Assembly (NCBI GenBank): GCA_964016885.1
Contig: OZ024741.1
Coordinates: 290,222,001-290,286,000, forward strand
Direction: 5' to 3'
DNA: 64,000 bases
Source of the DNA: Eledone cirrhosa
Taxonomy: Eukaryota
A program made the position numbers and the translations under genes. Below, in pieces: positions 471-60,139 of the stretch. How positions within the stretch are numbered: position 1 is the stretch's first letter; each line of letters starts with the position of its first letter. A model generated the notes under the pieces. That model worked only from the letters and a program-made list of their open reading frames with translations, did no database searches and was not told where the DNA came from.

Positions 471-3400
471 TTGTTGTTCTTTGAGTTTCAGACATTGATG
501 TTAGATAACTGGAAAGTTTGTTGAAATGAATAGCCACTACCTGCAGCCTCAGATATTCAGGACGTATCGGAGGGTTCTTGCTGTTCCCAGTAAACATGCC
601 TTTGAAGTGTTCCAAAAAGCGGGGCGGGACCAATTTTCTTTAACGATCCTTGGAAACTTTTTGAGATAGTACCTAGTGCGTCTATGACAATCGGGACCAC
701 TTTGACTTCATGGCAGTTCCAAATCCTTTTTACCTCCCACTTTAAGTCCTGGTATCGGTTAATTTTCTCCTTCTCCTTCTCTTGCACTCTCGTGTCGAAT
801 GGGCAGGCTACATCCACAATCAGGCACGATCTTTTTTCCTTGTCCAAAACCGCCAGGTCAGGTCTACTGTGTTCCAGTATCTTGTCCGTCTGTATCCTAA
901 AATCCCATAACACCTTCACTTGATCGTTTTCTATCACCGACTCTGGCTTATGCTCATACCACTACTCAGAATGGGGTAAATTGTTTACTTTGCATAGGTG
1001 CCAGTGGATCACCCTGCCCATCACATCATGTCTCCAGCCTTTATAGTGAGTCTAGGATAGGTGTTTACACTCGGATACAATGTGAGCCACAGTCTCCTCT
1101 CTCTCTCTCTCCACAGATCCTACACAGTGGGCTAGCCTCCTCCTTGTAAATATGGCGTTTCACCCACTTCGTTTTGAGGGCCTGCTCTTGCACAGCCATT
1201 AGCATTCTTTCTGTAGCCTTTTTAAGGTCTCCTCTTTTCAACCAGTTCCATGTCTGTGGATCTCTAAATTCAGTTTTCTCAAAGAAGGTACTATGAAGGG
1301 ATTTTTCATGAAGGTTGCTCTTTCTCCTTGTTGTTATTTCCTCCTTGGACATCCCCTGGTCTATTGTCCTCTCCTTCAGTACAATTCTGAGCATTGGCTC
1401 CCTACTATCAGTCACGTATTTGTGTAGGTTGTTTTTCTCTATCTGAACACAGTCCTCTATGCTGATAAGATCTCTTCCACCTTCAGATCTCCTTAAGTAG
1501 AGTCTATTGACATCACTCTTCTTGTGGAACAAAAGCTTCCTAGTCTTCCTATCCATTTTTTTTTTGTTCAGCAACATTCCATCTCAGAATTCCCGCACTG
1601 TACCTAATAATAGACACAGCTCGGGAATTTACTGCACTTATGACATTCCTACTGTTCAGATGTGATTTTAATACGCTCCTTACTCTCCGAATGTATTCAG
1701 ATCTTATCAATTCCTTCATTTTTTTTGTTCTTGATATCATCAGCCTCCAGAACACCTAAATATTTTATCCTTCTTCAGTATCAATTTCCTTTATCATCTC
1801 ACCTGTTGGTACCTGGATTCCGTTGCTTCTGCTCAATTTACCCCTCTTCATCACAAGGACTCCACACTTACTAATACCAAATTGCATACATATATCATTG
1901 CTGAAAATACGGACAGTGTCAACAAGCACATCCAACTCTTTCTCACTCTTCCCGAAGAGCTTAAGATCGTCCATGAAGAGGAGGTGATTGATGGTAAGCT
2001 CTCCCTTTCCCAACTTGTATCCTGCTCTCACTTTTCGCAGTATAATGGTCAGGGGGATCAGGGAAAGGACAAACAACAGAGGGGACAAACTATCTCCCTG
2101 GAAGATACCTCTCTTGATCTTCACGCCTCCCAAGGATTCTCCGCCCGATGTTAACTCTGTTTTCCACGACTTCATACTTTTGCTCAACAACTGTCTGATG
2201 TTATCTGCCACCTTGAAGATCTCTAGGCTTTTGGTTATCCAAGAATGAGGTACCATGTCGAATGCCTTTTTGTAGTCTATCCATCCCATGGCAAGACCAG
2301 TGTGTCTCCTCTTGCAATTCCTCATTACCATCTTATCAATAAGTAACTGGTCCTTTGTACCACGAGACTTCTTTCGGCATCCTTTCTGTTCGTCCGGTAA
2401 CAAGTTGTTTATGTGGAGGTGATGGTAGATTTCCTCAGACACTATACTTGTCAACAGTTTCCACATTACGGACAGACATGTGATAGGTCTATAGTTGGTA
2501 ACATCATTACCCTGATTCGGTCTTTCATTACCAGAACTGTGGTACCTTTTGTCAACCACTCTGGTACCTCACCTGACATCAAGCAGTCATTGAACATGGT
2601 TGTCAGTTTCGGGTGGAGGGATGTTATATTTTTAATCCAATACCCCTGCACACCATCTGGGCCTGGTGATTTCCAGTTGGTTAGTTTTTTGGCCTGCCCC
2701 TTAAGAGTTTCAACTGTGATACTCAAATCAGTTTGTTGGTGTGCCTGTTCACTAATCTCATTTTGTACTGTCTCAATCCATACTGCCTGGTCATTATGTT
2801 TAACATCCTGCTCCCATATTCCTCTCCAGAATGTCTTAGTTTGTTCCGCCTCATGGATCAAGTCGTTGCCTCTTTCTTTGCCTTCAAGCTGTCCAAACAG
2901 CATCTTCTGGTTGTTGTCAAACATGCGGTTCTGTCTATACTGACTGACTCTGCTCTCGTATCGCCTAATTTTTGCACTCTTTGCTACAATGCGTTGCTTC
3001 AGTTCCTCTATGATAATATTTAGCTTTTTCCTCCTAGTTTTGTACTTTATTTCCAGTCTATTTTTAGTGTCTATGTTTTTTAGTGTCCCATTCAGTAGGC
3101 ACTCAAGCTTTCCAATGTCATTTCTCATTTCCCTGATTTGACCATTCAGTCGTTTCTTCCACCAAGGTTCTGATCTTTCTTGTTTGTTGTTTCCTCTCGC
3201 TTTTATGCCAAGTAATTTCCTCACCGCATTTGCTGTTGCTTTGAGGATATTGTTGCACTGGTGAAGGCTCCTCACCTCAAGGTATGGGATGACTTTGTTT
3301 ACCTTAGATGTTGTTTCTTTTAACTTTTTCCTGTCTACAAATCTTAGGTTCATAGGTTTCCCACTATCATTGTTCAATTCATCTACCACTAAGTTTAGGA

Positions 3401-4010
3401 TATCAACCAAATCTTGTCCTAGCCCGTCAGCATTCATCTCCTCAATGCCAGTATCTTTGTTCCAGGTATTATTTATTTCAGCATTCAGATCATTGTCTGC
3501 TTCGGATGGTTCCTCCGTTCTCTCAACCTCTTCACCTTCATTTCCCACTGACTCGTTTGCCTGGCATACTCCACTCTCCATTTCCAACCTAATCTCTCTG
3601 CTCAGTTCCTCCAGTTCCAGCTCGCTTATCCACCCATTAGTTCTTATTACTCGAGCCTGCCCGGCCAATTTTTGTTCATCTAATTTAAATAAATCAATCT
3701 CGTTCCAGATGTTATGCATCCGTTTCCTATAGCCTTTTTCCTTGGGGTTACTCTTCAGGTGACATTGCATAACAGTTCTATTCAATTCTTTCGTCCAGTT
3801 GGTTCTGGTCCCTTTCCTTCTTCTTCTTCCTCCGACACTAGCAGTATTTGGTTCACAGCCAGGTCCCTGCTGCTGAGCCAGGGAGCACCTGCTGGGTGAG
3901 AGTCTGTCACATGACATTCCAGTCTCCACTTCACCGTTATTCGAACTGTTTAGGTTCGACATGTAAACACTCTTATCGAGGATTGGTGAATGTATGGTTA
4001 CATGACTACC
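452..4010 (-). mobile_element. R4/Dong-type non-LTR retrotransposon (RT plus C-terminal restriction-like endonuclease), near full length, degenerate
   Basis: Collinear minus-strand ORF pieces: [65 protein letters not shown] zinc knuckle, RPDLAVLD..LIVDVACPFD..EKINRYQDL; (TAA)n 3' tail at 452-472; 5' boundary approximate. Confidence 0.9.
557..3962 (-). pseudogene. Frameshifted single-ORF RT/zinc-knuckle/REL polyprotein of the R4/Dong-type LINE
   Basis: ORF track pieces 2466-3962, 1765-2559, 1549-1755, 1065-1577 and 557-937 join by frameshifts (including a poly-T run near 1560 and a (CT)n slip near 1100). Confidence 0.9.
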
Positions 4011-4358
4011 GGTGATTTCATCACCTCCGATGATTTCATCACCCCCGGTGATTTTAGTGTGGCACTATCACGCTGTAGACGAACATAAATAAACAAACAA
4101 ATAGGTAAAAAAAAAAAAAAAGAATAAGCATAAGTTTCATTGTAATGTAATGTTTGAATGTCTGACTTAGTTTTTTTCCCCCTTCTCTGTCTGTCTGTTT
4201 GTTTTTCTTTTCATTTTTCTTTTCTTTACGATTTTCGTTGCTGCTGTGCTGTTTTGATTTTGATTTTTGGTTTTTTGATTTTTTGACCGGGTCATCAAAT
4301 CAGTCTATTTATATCTTTTGATGCCTTCCTCTTTTAGTGGGGGTACTACGATGCATGT

Positions 4359-4884: not shown

Positions 4885-6155
4885 ATTCTTAGTGGAACGG
4901 CTCCTCTTCAAATTCTCCTGGAGGGGATAAGTTCCGTTGGTGAGGCGGTCCATCTGCTGCCAGCACCCTCTACGCGGAGGGCTGGGCATGCCGTGGCTAA
5001 TGATGCGCAGACATGCGTTGTGGCTGCGACATCTCCAGATATTCTGCCTCAACGGTGAACAGGTGTGGTCGCCGTTTATCAGACGGGCCTTTCCGCAGCT
5101 CATTTCTTTGACTGAGCTGCAGTACTGGATCAAGAAGAGACCGAGACTGGGTGACTGGCACCTAGAATGTTGCCAGGCACTCACTGCCCTCTACCAAGCG
5201 GGCAATGCGATCAGTGGAACTTCCACTCTCGAGTTCTATAGAGGATTAGTGGTGGGCAAGAGCGATGACGCACTCGGAGAAGCTTTGGGCCTCGACGAAG
5301 TCGAACTGACCAGTCTGTACCGGAGGACTTTTGAGCCGAGGACGATGGACAATTTCCAGAAATCCCTCACTTGGCAGTGCTACCGGGGGGCACTGCCGGT
5401 TCGGGATAAACTCTACAGGCACGGAAGTGCTGTCAGACGGACCTGCCCAAGATGCGCACAAAACGACGAAAACGTTCTGCACGCACTTGTCCAATGTCCG
5501 TGCATTACTGACTTGTGGAGTTATGTCGAACAGCTACTGTCGCGTGTGGAACGAATCCGGCTATCGGCCGAGTCCATAGTGAAGATCGATCCACCGCCTT
5601 CCTTAGGTCAGGAAGAGCAGGAAATTTTCCTCTGTCTGATGGCAGTTGCGAAAGAAATTATATGGTGGACCAGGTTGAAAGGACTAAAGACAGACAATTT
5701 TCTCTTCGGCCAATCCCTCATCAACTTCTTTAAGTTTCACCTGGAAAGGAAGGTGAGGGTGGAGAGAGAAGTGCTGACCCCAGTACATTTGCTAAAAGGT
5801 GGGTAAATGTGGCGAGAATGGCTCGTGTGAATGGGCCTACTCTGACCATGCGCCTATAGGCTAGCTAACTTGAGGAGAGGGGTGCTCTCCCTGGGTGCCC
5901 TAGAAGCGCAGGGTGGTTCAGGATTGGTGAGGTACCCGAGTCACCCCAGGGTCGTCCACCCACTATCGGGGAATTTATTTTGTTATATTTATGCATAGTT
6001 TATTTTATATTTTTATATTTTCATTGTTAAATTAGTCTTGCCATTGTGCACTTTTACTCCACCTTATTGTAAACCCCCACTGTCCCTGTCTTTGTATTGT
6101 CCCCTACATGTCGGCCCTTGTGGCTAATAAATGAAATCATTATTATTATTATTAT

Positions 6156-14644: not shown

Positions 14645-15840
14645 AAATATTTATTAAAATAACAGATTAAAGTTTAAGCAAAGAATCGCTGCTTTCACCC
14701 TTAACGAGATCTTCTGAAACTAACAAAGTCAATCTGTAAACGCAGAAGTGGATATTTCAAAAAACGTTGCAACCGGAGGAAGACAGGAAGACGATACTTT
14801 GGTTCGTGGAAACGTTCCCTGGCAAAGAACGGGAAAAAACGAATATAATACGTCATTATTTGGATTGGTGAAAAACAATTACGCGCAAAGACAGAACCAC
14901 GTTTATGGTATAAAAGAGGTCGTAGACTAATGTTCTCTTAGGTAGTTCATAGAGACGTTCTCTGACAATGAACGAAAAAAACGAAGATAATACGTCATAT
15001 GTGGAGCGTGGAGAACAATTGCACGCAAAGACAAAACCACGTAAATGGTATAGCAGAAGTCGTAGACTAAATTTCTAACTAGGAGACCGAATGAATCTCC
15101 GCTTCAGAGTTAAGAACAAAGTAAATAAATACAATACAGAGGTAATAGAAATTAAATAAATACATACACGCATACAAATACGTATATACACAAGCATACG
15201 CGAAAACACTTACCATAGGTATACAAAACCACGCACATATAAATATGTGCGTGTGTGTATGCGTGTATACAAATAAATAAATAATTAAATAAACGTATAT
15301 AAATAAATAAATACGTATATAACAAGCGCACGCGCATACCTACATGTAAATACACAAATGTTCGGAGACGTTAGTCAACCAAATCATGAAGTACACATAT
15401 ACACACACCCTACATACGTACGAACCTGCATACTCACACAGACGCAAAACACCCGTATACACATAACCAAACCATATGTACTAGAAAATATAAAATTATA
15501 CTCTATAACATATACAATCAAATTGTTTTCACCAATCCAAATAATGACGTATTATATTCGTTTTTTCCCGTTCTTTGCCAGGGAACGTTTCCACGAACCA
15601 AAGTATCGTCTTCCTGTCTTCCTCCGGTTGCAACGTTTTTTGAAATATCCACTTCTGCGTTTACAGATTGACTTTGTTAGTTTCAGAAGATCCCGTTAAT
15701 GGTGAAAGCAGCGATTCTTTGCTTAAACTTTAATCTGTTATTTTAATAAATATTTGCTCTACGGTTCTTATATATTTGATATATATTTATCCTTAACGAG
15801 CTTTCTTTGGATTTTAGTCTTCAAATTTATTATTATTACT

Positions 15841-16977: not shown

Positions 16978-17190
16978 AGATTTCTAGTATAGGCACAAGG
17001 GCCAGTAATTTGGGGGAATGGATAGTCAATTAAATCGACCCCAGTACGTTACTGGTGCTTTATTTTATCGACCCCGTAAGGATGAAAGGCAAAGTTAACC
17101 TCGGCGGGATTTGAGCTCAGACCGCAACGGGCCGTAACTCGGTGCTGCAAAGCATGGTGTCTGACGCTCTACTGTTACTGCCAATCCACT
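16978..17190 (-). mobile_element. SINE family A, long-tail variant
   Basis: Core match; TATAAATGATAT duplicated on both sides (TSD-like). Confidence 0.8.
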
Positions 17191-17615
17191 TATAAATGAT
17201 ATTAATAAATGGAAACTATATTTATCAAACCATATTTATTCTATTATATATATTTCAAGGGTACCAAAACATTGGTACGCTCTCATCAGATAAAATACAA
17301 AGTTTGTTTTATAAATATTGACATACCCAGGAACGAGATCATAACGGTTCAAGTTTTTCCTGAACCGTTAAGATCTCGTTCCTGGGTATGTCAATATTTA
17401 TAAAACAAACTTTGTATTTTATCTGATGAGAGCGTACCAAAGTTTTGGTACCCTTGAAATATACATAATAGAATAAATATGGTTTGATAAATATAGTTTC
17501 CATTTATTAATATCATTTATATCATTGATATTATACTCCAGAAAACTTGTCGAGCGCTTCGAATCAGTTATAAATATATATATTTGTTGAATTACCAACA
17601 AATTAAATCCCTTTG

Positions 17616-17696: not shown

Positions 17697-18986
17697 GGTG
17701 TTCGGGATAAATTTGACAGTTTCATCAGGAAAAAGAAAAACTGCTTGGTAATCTACAAAATTTATTTGATTTAAAAGAAATTCAATGGACAAGGAAATTA
17801 CACTATTGTCAAAGAGTTTTACTCAAAATAAACGCCATTAGCGTCTATTACAGCCTCAATCCGGGCAAGCTGATTTTACATTTTCCCTGGGAAGGCCCTC
17901 AAAAACTACTTTAATTCTGTCGATTAACTGGGCTTTTGTAGTACTGGCACGGCGATTGGTGTCTTTCTCTACAGCGCCCCATACAGAATAGTCCATCGGG
18001 TTAAGATCAGGAGAGTTCGGAAGCCAAACATTGGGACTGGTGTAGTCGTAAAAATTGGCTGACAACCATTTTTGACTTTTCCCCGAGGTGTGGCAGGGGG
18101 CCGAATCCTGCTGCCATACATACGGCCTATTATTGGCTACCCTTGTTATCCAGGGCTTAACTACAGTGGTTCGCAATTCCACGTAGGCATCTGAATTCAA
18201 CATGAGACCCTGTTTGAAAAAATGCGGAGGCATCACATCACCCTCGGAGGACACACATCCCAAAACCATGACAGTTTGGGAAAATTTAGTCTGCATGACT
18301 CGAGGAGTGTCCTTTGGACTGTATGCAAGTCATCTGTTATTCTGGATGTTGTGTTTTTGATCTTGGCACAAGTTTTTCTCATCGGAAAAGAACCAGATTG
18401 TTTGTGCTTCAGCAGGATATTTCCCTTTGCTCAGAAGTTTCTTCGCCTTTGTCAGACGATTTTCGCGGGCCTTTTCTGTGAGAAGTTGACTTCTGCGACG
18501 CTTGTATGAGTAGTAGCGAAGGTCTTTATTGAGTGCAATTTTCATAGTAGAGGCTGAAACATTCAATTCACGCGACAAAGACCGAATTCCGATGCCAGGG
18601 TCCTCCAACACTTTTTTCTGCAGATTTTCGATGAATTCTGCTGTGCGAGAGCAATCAGATCTTCTGTTATGTTTCTTTCTTCTAGCCACAGCCTTGCAGT
18701 CTCCATTGCAATTCTCCAGTTCATGCCGGATTGTTTTTACAGTGTTCAGGGAGCATTGAGCAGCGACCATAATCTTCTTATTTTGATGGCCGGCGCGAAT
18801 CATCATGATACAAGTTATTCTCTTCCATGATTCAGGTGGCTCCCAGTCATCCATTCTCGTTGTCATCACATATATGAATGAAGGAGGGTTTAAACTTTCA
18901 AATAAAGCCTAGTGGGCATGAATGAATTTAAAACATCTGAAAAAACAACCAAATATTATTCTGTCAAATTTATCCCGAACACCCTG
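17694..18986 (-). mobile_element. Tc1/mariner superfamily DD37D (maT) transposon, full length
   Basis: Perfect 26-bp TIRs CAGGGTGTTCGGGATAAATTTGACAG, TA flanks inside (TA)n, internal transposase. Confidence 0.95.
17819..18869 (-). pseudogene. DD37D transposase with one in-frame TGA and a C-terminal frameshift
   Basis: HTH region, FSDEK, QQDSAPCH, SPDLNPMDY with 37 residues between the 2nd and 3rd Asp; ORFs 18330-18869 and 17856-18296 are in frame; RIEAVIDANGVYFE* lies in a shifted frame. Confidence 0.9.
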
Positions 18987-19610: not shown

Positions 19611-20900
19611 TCTCTTTTACTCTTTTACCTGTTTCAGCCATCCGGCTGAGGCCATGCTGGGGCACCGCCCTTGTGGCTACACATTTATCTCCAGCCTGTA
19701 TAGGTTGGCCACTGGTGTAAGAGGGAGTTTGTTGCTGCTGCCCTTAGTTTTCCCTCGTGTCTTGCTGTGGGATCATCCGGGATCCTGGATAACAAGGTGT
19801 CGAGATGTTTCTTGAAGACATCCACCTCCACGTCATGCAAGTCTCTCAGATCCCTCGGCAGCCTGTCGAAGAGTTGAGGGCCCTTGAATCCCAGGCTATT
19901 GCAATACCTGCTCCTTATTCTGGATGTGGAAGACGGGACCTTTGGCACCACACAGTGACGTCCTGTTCGACGGTTGGTCCAGCTCCCAATGCCAAAGTTT
20001 GGTGCTAGTCCCTCCAGGACTTTCCACATGTAGATCACTGCGTATCTCTCCCGTCTTCGCTCCAAGGAGTGGAGGTTCAGTTCCTTTAGTCTCTCCCAGT
20101 AGCTTGTCTCCCTCATCTTGGCAATCCTCTTGGTGTAGCTTCGCAGGATTGCCTGAAGCTCCGTGGTTAGTTTGACACTATGGGGTGACCACAACTGGGA
20201 GCAGTACTCCAGGCGGCTTAGGACAAATGTCCTCCATAGTGTCAACATGGTGTCTCGATCTCTTGTCCGGAAAGTCCTCAAGATCCAGCCAGCGAGTCGT
20301 CTGCACATTGTCGCCACTTTCATGATATGTGAAGAAAAAGATGCATCATCACTCATGTCTATGCCCAGGTCTCGTATCGATTTTGACACGGGGATATCGG
20401 TCCCTCCTGGTCCTGTGTTGTTGTGTTGTACTAAATTTGTGTTTGCAGGTTTGTTTGGAGGTTTGTATTGTAGGTCTTGGAATTTGCCAGCATTAAACTG
20501 CATGTTGTTTTCTTCCGCCCATTTGTATATGGCATCCAGATCCTGCTGTAAAAGGGCAGCGTCAGCCGGGTTTTTGATTGCCTGTGCTACCTTAGTGTCA
20601 TCAGCATAGCTAGTGATGGATGTTGTTGTATGCACTACAGAGGGCATGTCTGAGAGAGCCACCAAAAACAGTAGTGGTTCCAGGACTGTCCCCTGGGGCA
20701 CCCCACTTGTTATTGGTGTTTCCCTCGAGAGGGCCGCATTTACTGCGACTGCCTGGCTTCTGTCCCTTAGGAAGCCATGCAGCCACTGACCTACTTTTCC
20801 AGTTATGCCGAGTCCGTGTAGTTTGTGACATATCATTACGTGGTCGACCTTGTCAAAGGCCTTCGCAAAGACAAGATATATCACGTCCACATGTGAGCTG
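19611..20900 (-). mobile_element. CR1-group LINE, 5'-truncated, with (GAGTAAAA)-type tail
   Basis: Uninterrupted 401-aa frame 19685-20890: DVIYLVFAKAFDKVDH, SGVPQGTVLEPLLF, YADDTK, RDLGI, LEYCSQLWSP, LERRRER; short 3'UTR. Confidence 0.9.
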
Positions 20901-20912
20901 TCTAGTAGTTGT

Positions 20913-20966
<54 letters not shown>

Positions 20967-21440
20967 GGGAAGAAAGAGGAAAACTGCGTGGTTGCACATG
21001 GGTTACATATTATAAAATTAGTCCCTCATCAGTGATTTGCCAACCATCATTGGTATTTCATCGCATTATATATATATATATATATATTGTCTGTGTGTTT
21101 ACATACAGAATAGCTGGCCACTCACAGTAAAGTGATCAGTGAAAAAAAACTTGGTACATCTACATATGTATACGTGTGTGTATTCATATACATACTAGTA
21201 TTTCAGTATACATATATGGATGTACATCTTTGACTTAATTGTTTGAGCGTCAGTCATACAAAAGTGAGTTACAAACGAAACGAAATTTAATTTCGTTTCG
21301 TTATTTGTTTTTATCGTCTCCGTTGAACCGGTACTTACTCACACTCTATGCAAGTTGGTCTGCCCACTACTAATTTTCATAGAAAAAGCATATAGCGATA
21401 TGTGCTTTTACGATTCTCTAGAGAGGCCGGAAGATAGGTA

Positions 21441-21485
21441 AATATTGCTGATGAGTTGTAACAACAACGAAACTAGTTCAATATT
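21441..21485 (+). ncRNA. Minimal type I hammerhead ribozyme, copy 1
   Basis: AATATTG-CTGATGA-GTTG taacaa CAAC-GAAA-C TA-GTT^CAATATT: 7-bp stem I, 4-bp stem II, palindromic stem III ACTAGT; cleavage predicted after 21478. Confidence 0.9.
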
Positions 21486-21909
21486 CCTTGTCTGGCTTTC
21501 TAGAGAATAGAGGAAAGGTGTTTCCTCAAAAACCAGTATGACTCTAAAAACCGGTTTGTCTGTGTGTTTACATACAGAATAGCTGGCCACTCACAGTAAA
21601 GTGATCAGTGAAAAAAAACTTGGTACATCTACATATGTATACGTGTGTGTATTCATATACATACTAGTATTTCAGTATACATATATGGATGTACATCTTT
21701 GACTTAATTGTTTGAGCGTCAGTCATACAAAAGTGAGTTACAAACGAAACGAAATTTAATTTCGTTTCGTTATTTGTTTTTATCGTCTCCGTTGAACCGG
21801 TACTTACTCACACTCTATGCAAGTTGGTCTGCCCACTACTAATTTTCATAGAAAAAGCATATAGCGATATGTGCTTTTACGATTCTCTAGAGAGGCCGGA
21901 AGATAGGTA

Positions 21910-21954
21910 AATATTGCTGATGAGTTGTAACAACAACGAAACTAGTTCAATATT
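21910..21954 (+). ncRNA. Minimal type I hammerhead ribozyme, copy 2
   Basis: Identical to copy 1; cleavage predicted after 21947. Confidence 0.9.
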
Positions 21955-22174
21955 CCTTGTCTGGCTTTCTGGAGAATAGAGGAAAGGTGTTTCCTCAAAA
22001 ACCAGTATGACTCTAAAAACCGGTTTGTCTGTGTGTTTACATACAGAATAGCTGGCCACTCACAGTAAAGTGATCAGTGAAAAAAAAAACTTGGTACATC
22101 TACATATGTATACGTGTGTGTATTCATATACATACTAGTATTTCAGTATACATATATGGATGTACATCTTTGAC

Positions 22175-22336
<162 letters not shown>

Positions 22337-26142: not shown

Positions 26143-26211
26143 CCAAACGGAACTTGAACCGTTAAGGTCTGATTCCTGGGTATGTCACTATTTATAAAAC
26201 AAATTTTGTAT

Positions 26212-26266
26212 TTTATCTGATGAGAGTGTACCAAAGTTTTGGTACCCTTGAAATATATATAATAGA
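26212..26266 (+). ncRNA. Type I hammerhead ribozyme, canonical core (family C copy)
   Basis: TTTAT-CTGATGA-GAGTGTACCAAAGTTTTGGTACCCTT-GAAA-T ATAT-ATA^ATAGA. Confidence 0.75.
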
Positions 26267-26309
26267 ATAAATATGGTTTTATAAATATATTTTCCATTTA
26301 TTAACATCA

Positions 26310-26351
<42 letters not shown>

Positions 26352-39142: not shown

Positions 39143-39711
39143 TAAAATAACAGATTAAAGTTTAAGCAAAGAATCGCTGCTTTCACCCTTAACGGGATCT
39201 TCTGAAACTAACAAAATCAATCTGTAAACGCAGAAGTGGATATTTCCAAAAACGTTGCAACCGGAGGAAGACAGGAAGACGATACTTTGGTTCGTGGAAA
39301 CGTTCCCTGGCAAAGAACGGGAAAAAACGAATATAATACGTCATTATTCGGAGCGGGAAAAACAATTACGCGCAAAGACAGAACCACGTTTATGGTATAA
39401 AGGAAGTCGTAGACTAATGTTCTATTAGGTGGTTCATAGAGACGTTCTCAGGCAATGAACGGGAAAAAGAAGATAATACGTCATATGTGGAGCGGGAGAA
39501 CAATTGCACGCAAAGACAAAACCACGTAAATGGTATAGCAGCAGTCGTAGACTAAAATTCTAACTAGGAGACCGAATGAATCTCCGCTTCAGAGTTAAGA
39601 ACAAAGTAAATAAAATAGAATACAATATTTGCTATATTTTTATATATTTGATATATATTTATCCTTATCGAGCCCTCTTTGGATTTTAGTCTTCAAATTT
39701 ATTATTATTAC

Positions 39712-59568: not shown

Positions 59569-60139
59569 AATCAACAAAGAAGCCTTTAATACATTAAAAA
59601 TCTTTATTCGCTGACAATGTTTCGTCCCAGTAATTAGGACTCTTCAGAGCAAGGAAAAGACAAAAAATATCATCGGCTAGAACAAGCCAAAATTCAGAAG
59701 AATAGAGAAGGATATTTCGGAAAATTATCATGGAAAGACGTGTCAAACCTAATAGGGTGCATTGGTACATAAAAACTATAGGGCAAGAGAGCAAGCAAAC
59801 ATTAAAATAGCCACGTTAAAAGTACAATACAAGTCTAATACTCGAAATACAACAACGTAGTATAATGCGAGAAATAAGTTATAAAAATTACAATATAATA
59901 TACAATACAATGCAATACAAATACAGAAATAAAATTTAATAAATATATATACACGCACTCACACACACATATATACACACATATATACACATTTACACAT
60001 ACACATATTAACACAAATATATAAATAGAATAATCACCCTGACGGTATGATTAAACAATACTAAAATCAATGAAAACAATATTGACATTAAAAAAAATAT
60101 AAATACTTCCAACGTACCATGCAAAGTCAATATTTTTAT

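Follow-up and report, generated by a model that had tools for sequence, protein, structure and literature searches.

The DNA at positions 21087 to 22180 of the window (the whole stretch of 64,000 nucleotides that was analysed) is probably a recently inserted animal non-LTR retrozyme of the type I hammerhead kind, the fold of which has been kept by selection over a 469-nt unit. The tandem 2.33-mer, its two intact hammerheads, the lack of an ORF, the (TA)n flanks, the very stable plus-strand fold and the mostly pair-keeping differences in related copies are direct evidence; the life cycle is reconstructed from the published retrozyme cycle. The insertion and its surroundings contain the following features.

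21087..22180, plus strand: candidate retrozyme insertion, a 469-nt unit repeated head to tail 2.33 times (TRF period 469, 2.3 copies, 99%)
21479..21947, plus strand: non-coding monomer of 35.6% GC that runs from one predicted cleavage site to the other, the only complete one
21430..21501, plus strand: type I hammerhead 1 (Rfam HH9, 37.7 bits, E 1.2e-7, full model 1-77)
21899..21970, plus strand: type I hammerhead 2, identical to hammerhead 1 (Rfam HH9; predicted cut after 21947)
21066..21087, no strand: (TA)n tract at the left junction (from the sequence)
22180..22333, no strand: (TA)77 tract at the right junction (from the sequence and TRF)
21971, plus strand: G in the third, partial unit, the sole substitution between units (A at 21502; unit comparison)
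22080..22089, plus strand: A-tract of 10 A in the third, partial unit, 8 A in units 1 and 2 (unit comparison)
About 19685-20914, minus strand: 5'-truncated RT fragment, presumably LINE-type (domain scan, RVT_1 E 3.6e-15)
59607-59653, minus strand: another type I hammerhead, matched by Rfam Hammerhead_1 (E 0.0013, 23.9 bits against a gathering threshold of 34)

The unit is a plain tandem with no LTR arrangement, is non-coding and has a GC content below 50%, as is expected of retrozymes. On the monomer circle the longest ATG-initiated ORF has 19 codons' worth of amino acids (19 aa) on the plus strand and 23 aa on the minus strand; the longest stop-free frame in the unit spans 57-60 aa, with no ORF remnant, and AATAAA is absent from both strands of the 469 nt. 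Two head-to-tail units carry a complete type I hammerhead with all core positions intact (retrozymes are defined by at least two). The insertion is circularly permuted with respect to the cleavage site, starting at monomer position 78 and ending at position 231 (junction positions), and a target-site duplication is unreadable inside the (TA)n microsatellite. That the right junction coincides with two bases predicted to be unpaired (P unpaired 0.95) was given no weight, the hairpin around them being poorly defined and n = 1.

The unit sits in chromosomal DNA, in a microsatellite-rich animal sequence with LINE and Tc1/mariner fragments and with short repeats that we take to resemble octopus SINEs. 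The RT fragment at about 19685-20914, which we assign to the LINE type by our reading of its motifs, ends in (TA)23 about 130 nt to the left of the insertion. No Penelope-like element (PLE) reading frame was detected in the window among the 9 of 103 listed ORFs that were scanned (RVT_1 in two, GIY-YIG in none), and no PLE body adjoins the insertion. Retrozymes are expected in many dispersed genomic copies alongside an autonomous PLE; the window contains a single locus of the unit. The minus-strand hammerhead at 59607-59653 lies in a non-coding stretch of about 370 nt (about 59570-59940), and after the hammerhead come AATAAA and a (TA)n tract; from its sequence, this stretch looks like a Penelope-type pseudo-LTR remnant.

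In hammerhead 1, stem I is formed by 21441-47 and 21479-85, with a UA bulge at 21439-40, and stem II by 21455-58 and 21465-68; the core consists of CUGAUGA (21448-54) and GAAA (21469-72). Helix III is the palindromic ACUAGU at 21472-77, that is, a single A-U pair carrying a palindromic loop. The cut, placed by the HH9 alignment, is predicted between GUU and C, after 21478; a GUU triplet is cleaved more slowly than GUC. The HH9 score of 37.7 bits is below the gathering threshold of 52, at which Rfam gave no match in the whole window. The minus strand of 21000-22200 gave no Rfam hammerhead match, and no core pattern was found on it within the element. Rfam miRNA and sRNA matches on the hairpins fell far below gathering and were rejected as chance. 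When the 2.33-mer was folded, the double-hammerhead fold (-370.0 kcal/mol) lay 8.6 kcal/mol below the two single active folds (-361.4), and the unconstrained MFE (-376.6) lay 6.6 kcal/mol below the double-hammerhead fold. Opening the hammerhead core in the circle was computed to cost only 1.5 kcal/mol, so that the core is hardly blocked.

The circular monomer was predicted to fold into the elements listed here.

21479..21508, plus strand: 5' side of stem I plus extension (7+3+6+12 bp), pairing with 21882-21916 in the monomer, where it joins both ends, and with 21413-21447 in the precursor
21882..21916, plus strand: 3' side of stem I plus extension, as paired in the monomer (unit-1 coordinates 21413-21447)
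21510..21527, plus strand: 7-bp hairpin (mean P 0.98)
21536..21728, plus strand: multibranch domain with 21536-43/21721-28 as its closing helix (z of the segment: plus -5.9, minus -3.2)
21623..21694, plus strand: long AT-rich hairpin (21154-21225 in unit 1); run X12 has G-C in place of the A-C mismatch
21733..21811, plus strand: arm closed by 21733-38/21806-11, holding a perfect 13-bp hairpin at 21743-21771 (helix list)
21814..21878, plus strand: two adjacent hairpins, 21814-21852 and 21853-21878 (segment z -5.0 plus, -0.9 minus)

The multibranch domain is composed of an arm (21551-21586), two weak hairpins (21588-21610 and 21697-21716) and the long hairpin. All five arm pairs named in the preliminary description of this DNA were found in unit 1 and recur 469 nt on, and all five helices are present in the circular MFE structure with mean pair probabilities of 0.91-0.99, including the extension of stem I across the cleavage junction (21413-21431 with 21491-21508). 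Together they cover 137 nt, or 29% of the monomer; the hairpin at 21814-21852 was missing from that list.

The circular MFE was -152.3 kcal/mol. Sixty dinucleotide shuffles averaged -96.8 +/- 5.1, and none of them folded as well (z -10.9), so the proposed comparison with shuffled controls came out strongly in favour of structure; the linear monomer gave a z of -9.5 in one comparison and of -9.2 in another (0 of 100 shuffles as good). The reading as a retrozyme monomer with a stable branched fold is supported. Retrozyme monomers are expected to be stable and highly self-paired while the hammerhead can form freely, as is predicted here (z -10.9; 1.5 kcal/mol). As background, 16 of 24 tiles picked from 82 microsatellite-free tiles were folded with 12 shuffles each; their best-strand z averaged -1.6 with a minimum of -7.7, and the monomer was more extreme than all 16. 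The statement that the monomer is almost entirely hairpins was, however, too strong: the MFE structure pairs 312 of the 469 nt (66.5%), 220 nt (47%) are paired at P>0.9, and the shuffles reach 61% on average and up to 69%. The paired fraction was rejected as a test, being inside the shuffle range; the excess of the fold is one of helix length and stability.

The minus strand folded with a circular MFE of -119.5 kcal/mol (z -4.7). The plus strand had z values of -2.1 to -6.4 in all seven segments (partly nested) and was the better strand in six of them; the arm with the 13-bp hairpin folds equally well on the minus strand (z -4.5 against -3.3). G-U pairs make up 14 of the 156 MFE pairs. With DNA parameters the two strands were nearly equal (-61.6 against -59.0, values that carry no shuffle control). 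Since the plus strand is favoured with RNA parameters and the strands are near equal with DNA parameters, the signal points to RNA.

The preliminary description had taken A21502 to G21971, the only substitution between units, as evidence of selection on structure. It is indeed the only one, and it turns a U-A into a U-G pair, but the units also differ by the 2-nt longer A-tract, and G21971 lies outside the only complete monomer. Every paired A faces U, so that A-to-G always keeps the pair (89 of 89 paired A sites, P = 1), and the substitution is empty as structural evidence. Selection on RNA structure instead draws its support from the plus-strand bias and from the variants of related copies.

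The 31-mers of the unit were present in 20 of 24 listed runs, representing 16 studies and 17 coded organism labels; no RNA run was among the listed holders. Seventeen runs (X1-X9, X11, X13-X16, X18-X20) are known by shared 31-mers alone and were treated as leads only. Four runs (X10, X12, X17 and X21) were aligned to unit 1. X10 (label H) gave a single contig of 416 nt at 98% identity, with 7 substitutions and a 3-nt gap; X12 (label J) a single contig of 496 nt at 97% identity, carrying a 3-nt gap and 15 differences, of which 14 are listed; X17 (label N) gave fragments, in pieces 91-100% identical. A further X17 record (record 5; 37 nt, 6 differences, in a 10-kb contig at depth 53) was dropped as spurious. 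The A-tract is 3-4 nt shorter in X10, X12 and X17. The set of variants is small, with two contigs fully scored; the contigs are shallow (depth 2-5; X10 and X12 at 4.5-5), and X10 and X12 share 6 sites and are not independent. Relatives were scored site by site against the structure of the window. Pattern scans anchored on the hammerhead returned 0 loci in metagenome contigs and 0 in viral contigs.

Of the 15 listed sites in X10 and X12, 9 are paired in the MFE structure of the window, and none breaks a pair, against 6.1 breaks expected (P 6e-5; 1e-4 to 2e-4 with the centroid structure or without the hammerhead). As G-to-A at a G-U site may be A-to-G in the lineage of the window, and hence always pair-keeping, this one-direction null was set aside. 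Under a two-direction null, 1 of the 15 sites breaks a pair against 5.3 expected (P 0.011); the break so counted is at 21216, A-C in the window and G-C in X12. The pair 21419/21502 is U-A in the window, U-G in unit 3 of the window and in X10, and C-G in X12 and in a loose end of X17; the pair 21423/21498 is G-U in the window, A-U in X12 and G-C in the same loose end. One partner pair among 14 sites has a chance probability of about 0.12, and the double change to C-G at 21419/21502 is not decisive alone. In X17, the listed changes at 21171, 21441 and 21456 and the change at 21503 in the loose end break pairs unless their partners have changed too; the partners of all four lie near piece ends, where differences seem to be unlisted (two pieces have 2 and 5 such differences). 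With X17 included, these changes give 5 breaks in 21 sites against 8.1 expected when counted as breaks (P 0.10), and P 0.0002 when counted as kept. It is likely, and not proven, that selection keeps the RNA structure across the whole unit.

The preliminary description placed this selection in a circular form, for which the fold gives no support. The linear and circular monomers share the same MFE structure, no helix needs the circle, and in the 2.33-mer each hammerhead already closes its own stem I and extension. Because these helices form in the linear precursor and the MFE structure is unchanged, the fold cannot tell a circle from linear RNA. Two other observations speak indirectly for a circle. 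The X12 contig consists of 466 + 30 nt joined head to tail, has no flank and forms a closed cycle in the assembly graph. A contig cannot itself show an RNA circle, and a closed 466-nt cycle is also expected from a low-depth tandem array. Reverse transcription of a circle is predicted to give permuted insertions of more than one unit (PMC7761336), and the ends of the present insertion, permuted, more than two turns apart and unrelated to the cut site, would fit the copying of a circle.

The loose end of X17 starts, with GATC, at the very position where the unit has a GANTC site, presumably the form of a Hi-C ligation junction, so that the unit is DNA at least in that holder. A fold-back joint in X17 (21264/21343) sits exactly on the predicted helix 21264-69/21337-42; it was rejected as a sign of RNA, as X17 also shows the Hi-C-type junction, and is probably a snap-back library artefact.

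A cycle for the element can be proposed along published lines. Read-through transcription would give a multimer, in which the hammerheads would cut between GUU and C, probably as a double hammerhead, given a helix III of only one A-U pair on a palindromic loop. Animal retrozymes with a weak palindromic helix III are described as working as dimers, with ligation by RtcB (PMC7229834); eight of the nine retrozyme dimers tested in the 2026 preprint 10.64898/2026.07.22.740005 failed to cleave. The intervening monomer would already be folded, with its 5'-OH and cyclic-phosphate ends kept together by stem I plus extension; a host ligase of the RtcB type may then close the circle, as set out for retrozymes in section 16 of PMC7229834. 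In the circle, the single weak hammerhead, with no partner and a GUU site, would reopen it slowly, and the branched fold may protect it. A Penelope-like RT/endonuclease could prime at a nicked (TA)n tract and copy round the circle more than twice, leaving a permuted insertion. This mobilisation by a PLE is suggested by the literature, by the (TA)n target and by the Penelope-type hammerhead remnant at 59607-59653; insertion in (TA)n is reported for Naiad and hypothesised for Neptune (10.1101/2021.04.23.441226, 10.64898/2026.07.22.740005).

Three other explanations were weighed. The element may be a structured RNA derived from a pseudo-LTR or mobilised by a PLE, spread as a linear tandem transcript or amplified locally as DNA, with circles incidental or absent; selection on the fold would then act in linear RNA, on the folding of the hammerhead, on stability or on recognition by the RT. 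We regard this as unlikely. Homology of Xenopus retrozymes to PLE pseudo-LTRs, with local tandem amplification proposed (10.64898/2026.07.22.740005), speaks for it, as do the formation of stem I and its extension in the linear precursor and the identity of the linear and circular MFE structures; yet the unit has neither an ORF remnant nor AATAAA, unlike the PLE-type hammerhead at 59607-59653, the insertion is adjoined by no PLE body and its neighbouring RT fragment has motifs that we read as LINE-type, and permuted ends with near-identical copies fit rolling copying. That the hairpins are DNA-level palindromes, or chance in AT-rich, microsatellite-like sequence free of RNA selection, is extremely improbable and already largely refuted. 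Two hairpins are indeed near-perfect and rich in A and T, the arm with the 13-bp hairpin is equally good on the minus strand and one background tile reached z -7.7; against this, the strong plus-strand bias comes from G-U pairs (-152.3 against -119.5 with RNA parameters), the signal runs across all seven segments, two intact hammerheads lie on one strand and the variants exchange G-U, A-U and G-C pairs.

It is also very unlikely that the window records one recent integration of a circular RNA that moves between host species, as a viroid-like RNA or a horizontally spreading retrozyme, and is occasionally written into genomes; a retrozyme circle crossing species boundaries as RNA, halfway between a retrotransposon and a viroid and caught just after its integration into (TA)n, is an equally doubtful proposition. 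Copies 97-98% identical under labels H and J and fragments under label N would agree with such spread, the more so as retrozyme sequences are called species-specific in PMC7229834, and so would the flank-less 466-nt cycle of X12 and differences that resemble structure-preserving RNA variation. In 1,938 million letters of raw Hi-C data under label E there was no real read of the unit, the two partial reads in X21, less than 90% alike over 21374-21411, being taken as spurious; another label E run lists 0.51 of the words of the unit (a word match alone). Each copy should, however, yield 2.7 reads if the genome has 2.5 Gb and 0.7 reads if it has 10 Gb; zero reads are compatible with 2-4 copies at 5-10 Gb, and filters can cause such depth blanks. 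The organism labels are coded, and close relatives, contamination or diet are possible and simpler than spread; the Hi-C-type junction marks the unit in X17 as DNA, and a closed cycle arises from a low-depth tandem array too. A ribozyme in one polarity only is, moreover, a retrozyme signature (PMC11721086).

The recently inserted retrozyme remains the preferred reading, and its fold is the one expected for an already known class, the metazoan non-LTR retrozymes, which Cervera and de la Pena 2020 (PMC7229834) describe from energy prediction as highly self-paired circRNAs. The members from coral, mussel and axolotl (PMC7229834) are likewise short non-coding tandem repeats with less than 50% GC, with one type I hammerhead per unit and no LTR, PBS or PPT, and their monomers are predicted to be self-paired with the hammerhead unblocked in the circle. 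The unit of 469 nt compares with 150-450 bp (expressed circles of 170-400 nt) in that source, and lies within the range of 51-972 bp of 10.64898/2026.07.22.740005, the working definition of which it also fits. The GUU triplet, and near-identical copies under other organism labels where sequences are called species-specific, set it apart from the retrozymes in PMC7229834. The hammerhead resembles HHR_Amex1 of axolotl and that of newt satellite 2 (section 15) in its one-bp helix III, palindromic tetraloop and canonical stems I and II; HHR_Amex1 cuts poorly alone and well as a dimer (section 15). In contrast to HHR_Amex1, the present one comes from an apparently invertebrate genome, most invertebrate hammerheads having a stable helix III (PMC7229834), and its dimer dependence is computed. 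A literature search for octopus or cephalopod retrozymes returned, in the text available, only work on other elements.

PLE pseudo-LTRs share the type I hammerhead, the partial tandem and the insertion in (TA)n (10.64898/2026.07.22.740005; 10.1101/2021.04.23.441226); unlike them, the unit contains no RT or GIY-YIG frame and no AATAAA, and its hammerhead is canonical, not minimal. Avsunviroidae and viroid-like RNAs are alike in size range, lack of coding, branched stable fold and hammerhead processing; they differ in that the present ribozyme has one polarity, is of type I instead of III, is found in chromosomal DNA and is not sequestered by a complementary strand. A viroid or viroid-like infectious circRNA was rejected, as such RNAs have ribozymes in both polarities and no DNA counterpart (PMC11721086). 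The description of the element as viroid-like thus holds for its shape only, the ribozyme being in one polarity and the element genomic DNA.

What is added to the known class is evidence from variants that pairing is kept outside the ribozyme too; a search for analyses of compensatory variation in an animal retrozyme, the 2020 supplement aside, returned only one of a citrus viroid-like RNA. The question why animal circles with an unblocked hammerhead persist has been raised (PMC7229834), and a testable answer for the present element is that a hammerhead needing a dimer would work in the tandem precursor but hardly at all in the circle. Should the near-identical copies come from distantly related hosts, they would offer a direct handle on horizontal retrozyme spread and on the retrozyme-to-viroid hypothesis.

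Several other elements were observed in the window. A repeat family at about 17190-17520 and 26150-26310 contains a motif like the hammerhead core (17423 and 26217 on the plus strand, 17289 on the minus strand), with no Rfam hammerhead match at E<=0.01; two of its copies together make up an almost perfect inverted repeat some 300 nt long, and the family may represent the end of a MITE or else a ribozyme of atypical form. The background tile at 5160-5628 (minus strand), in a retroelement fragment bearing zf-RVT, gave the folding z of -7.7 (12 shuffles only). A long, broken non-LTR element occupies 557-4064 on the minus strand (RT frame, RVT_1 E 2.2e-24), the C-terminal part of which we take to recall restriction-like-endonuclease (R4/Dong-type) elements. 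A broken Tc1/mariner-like transposase is found at 17856-18908 (minus strand; weak DDE_3 and HTH_Tnp_Tc3_2 matches below cut-off), and related tandem repeats of about 140 nt are present at 14812-15070 and 39288-39562.
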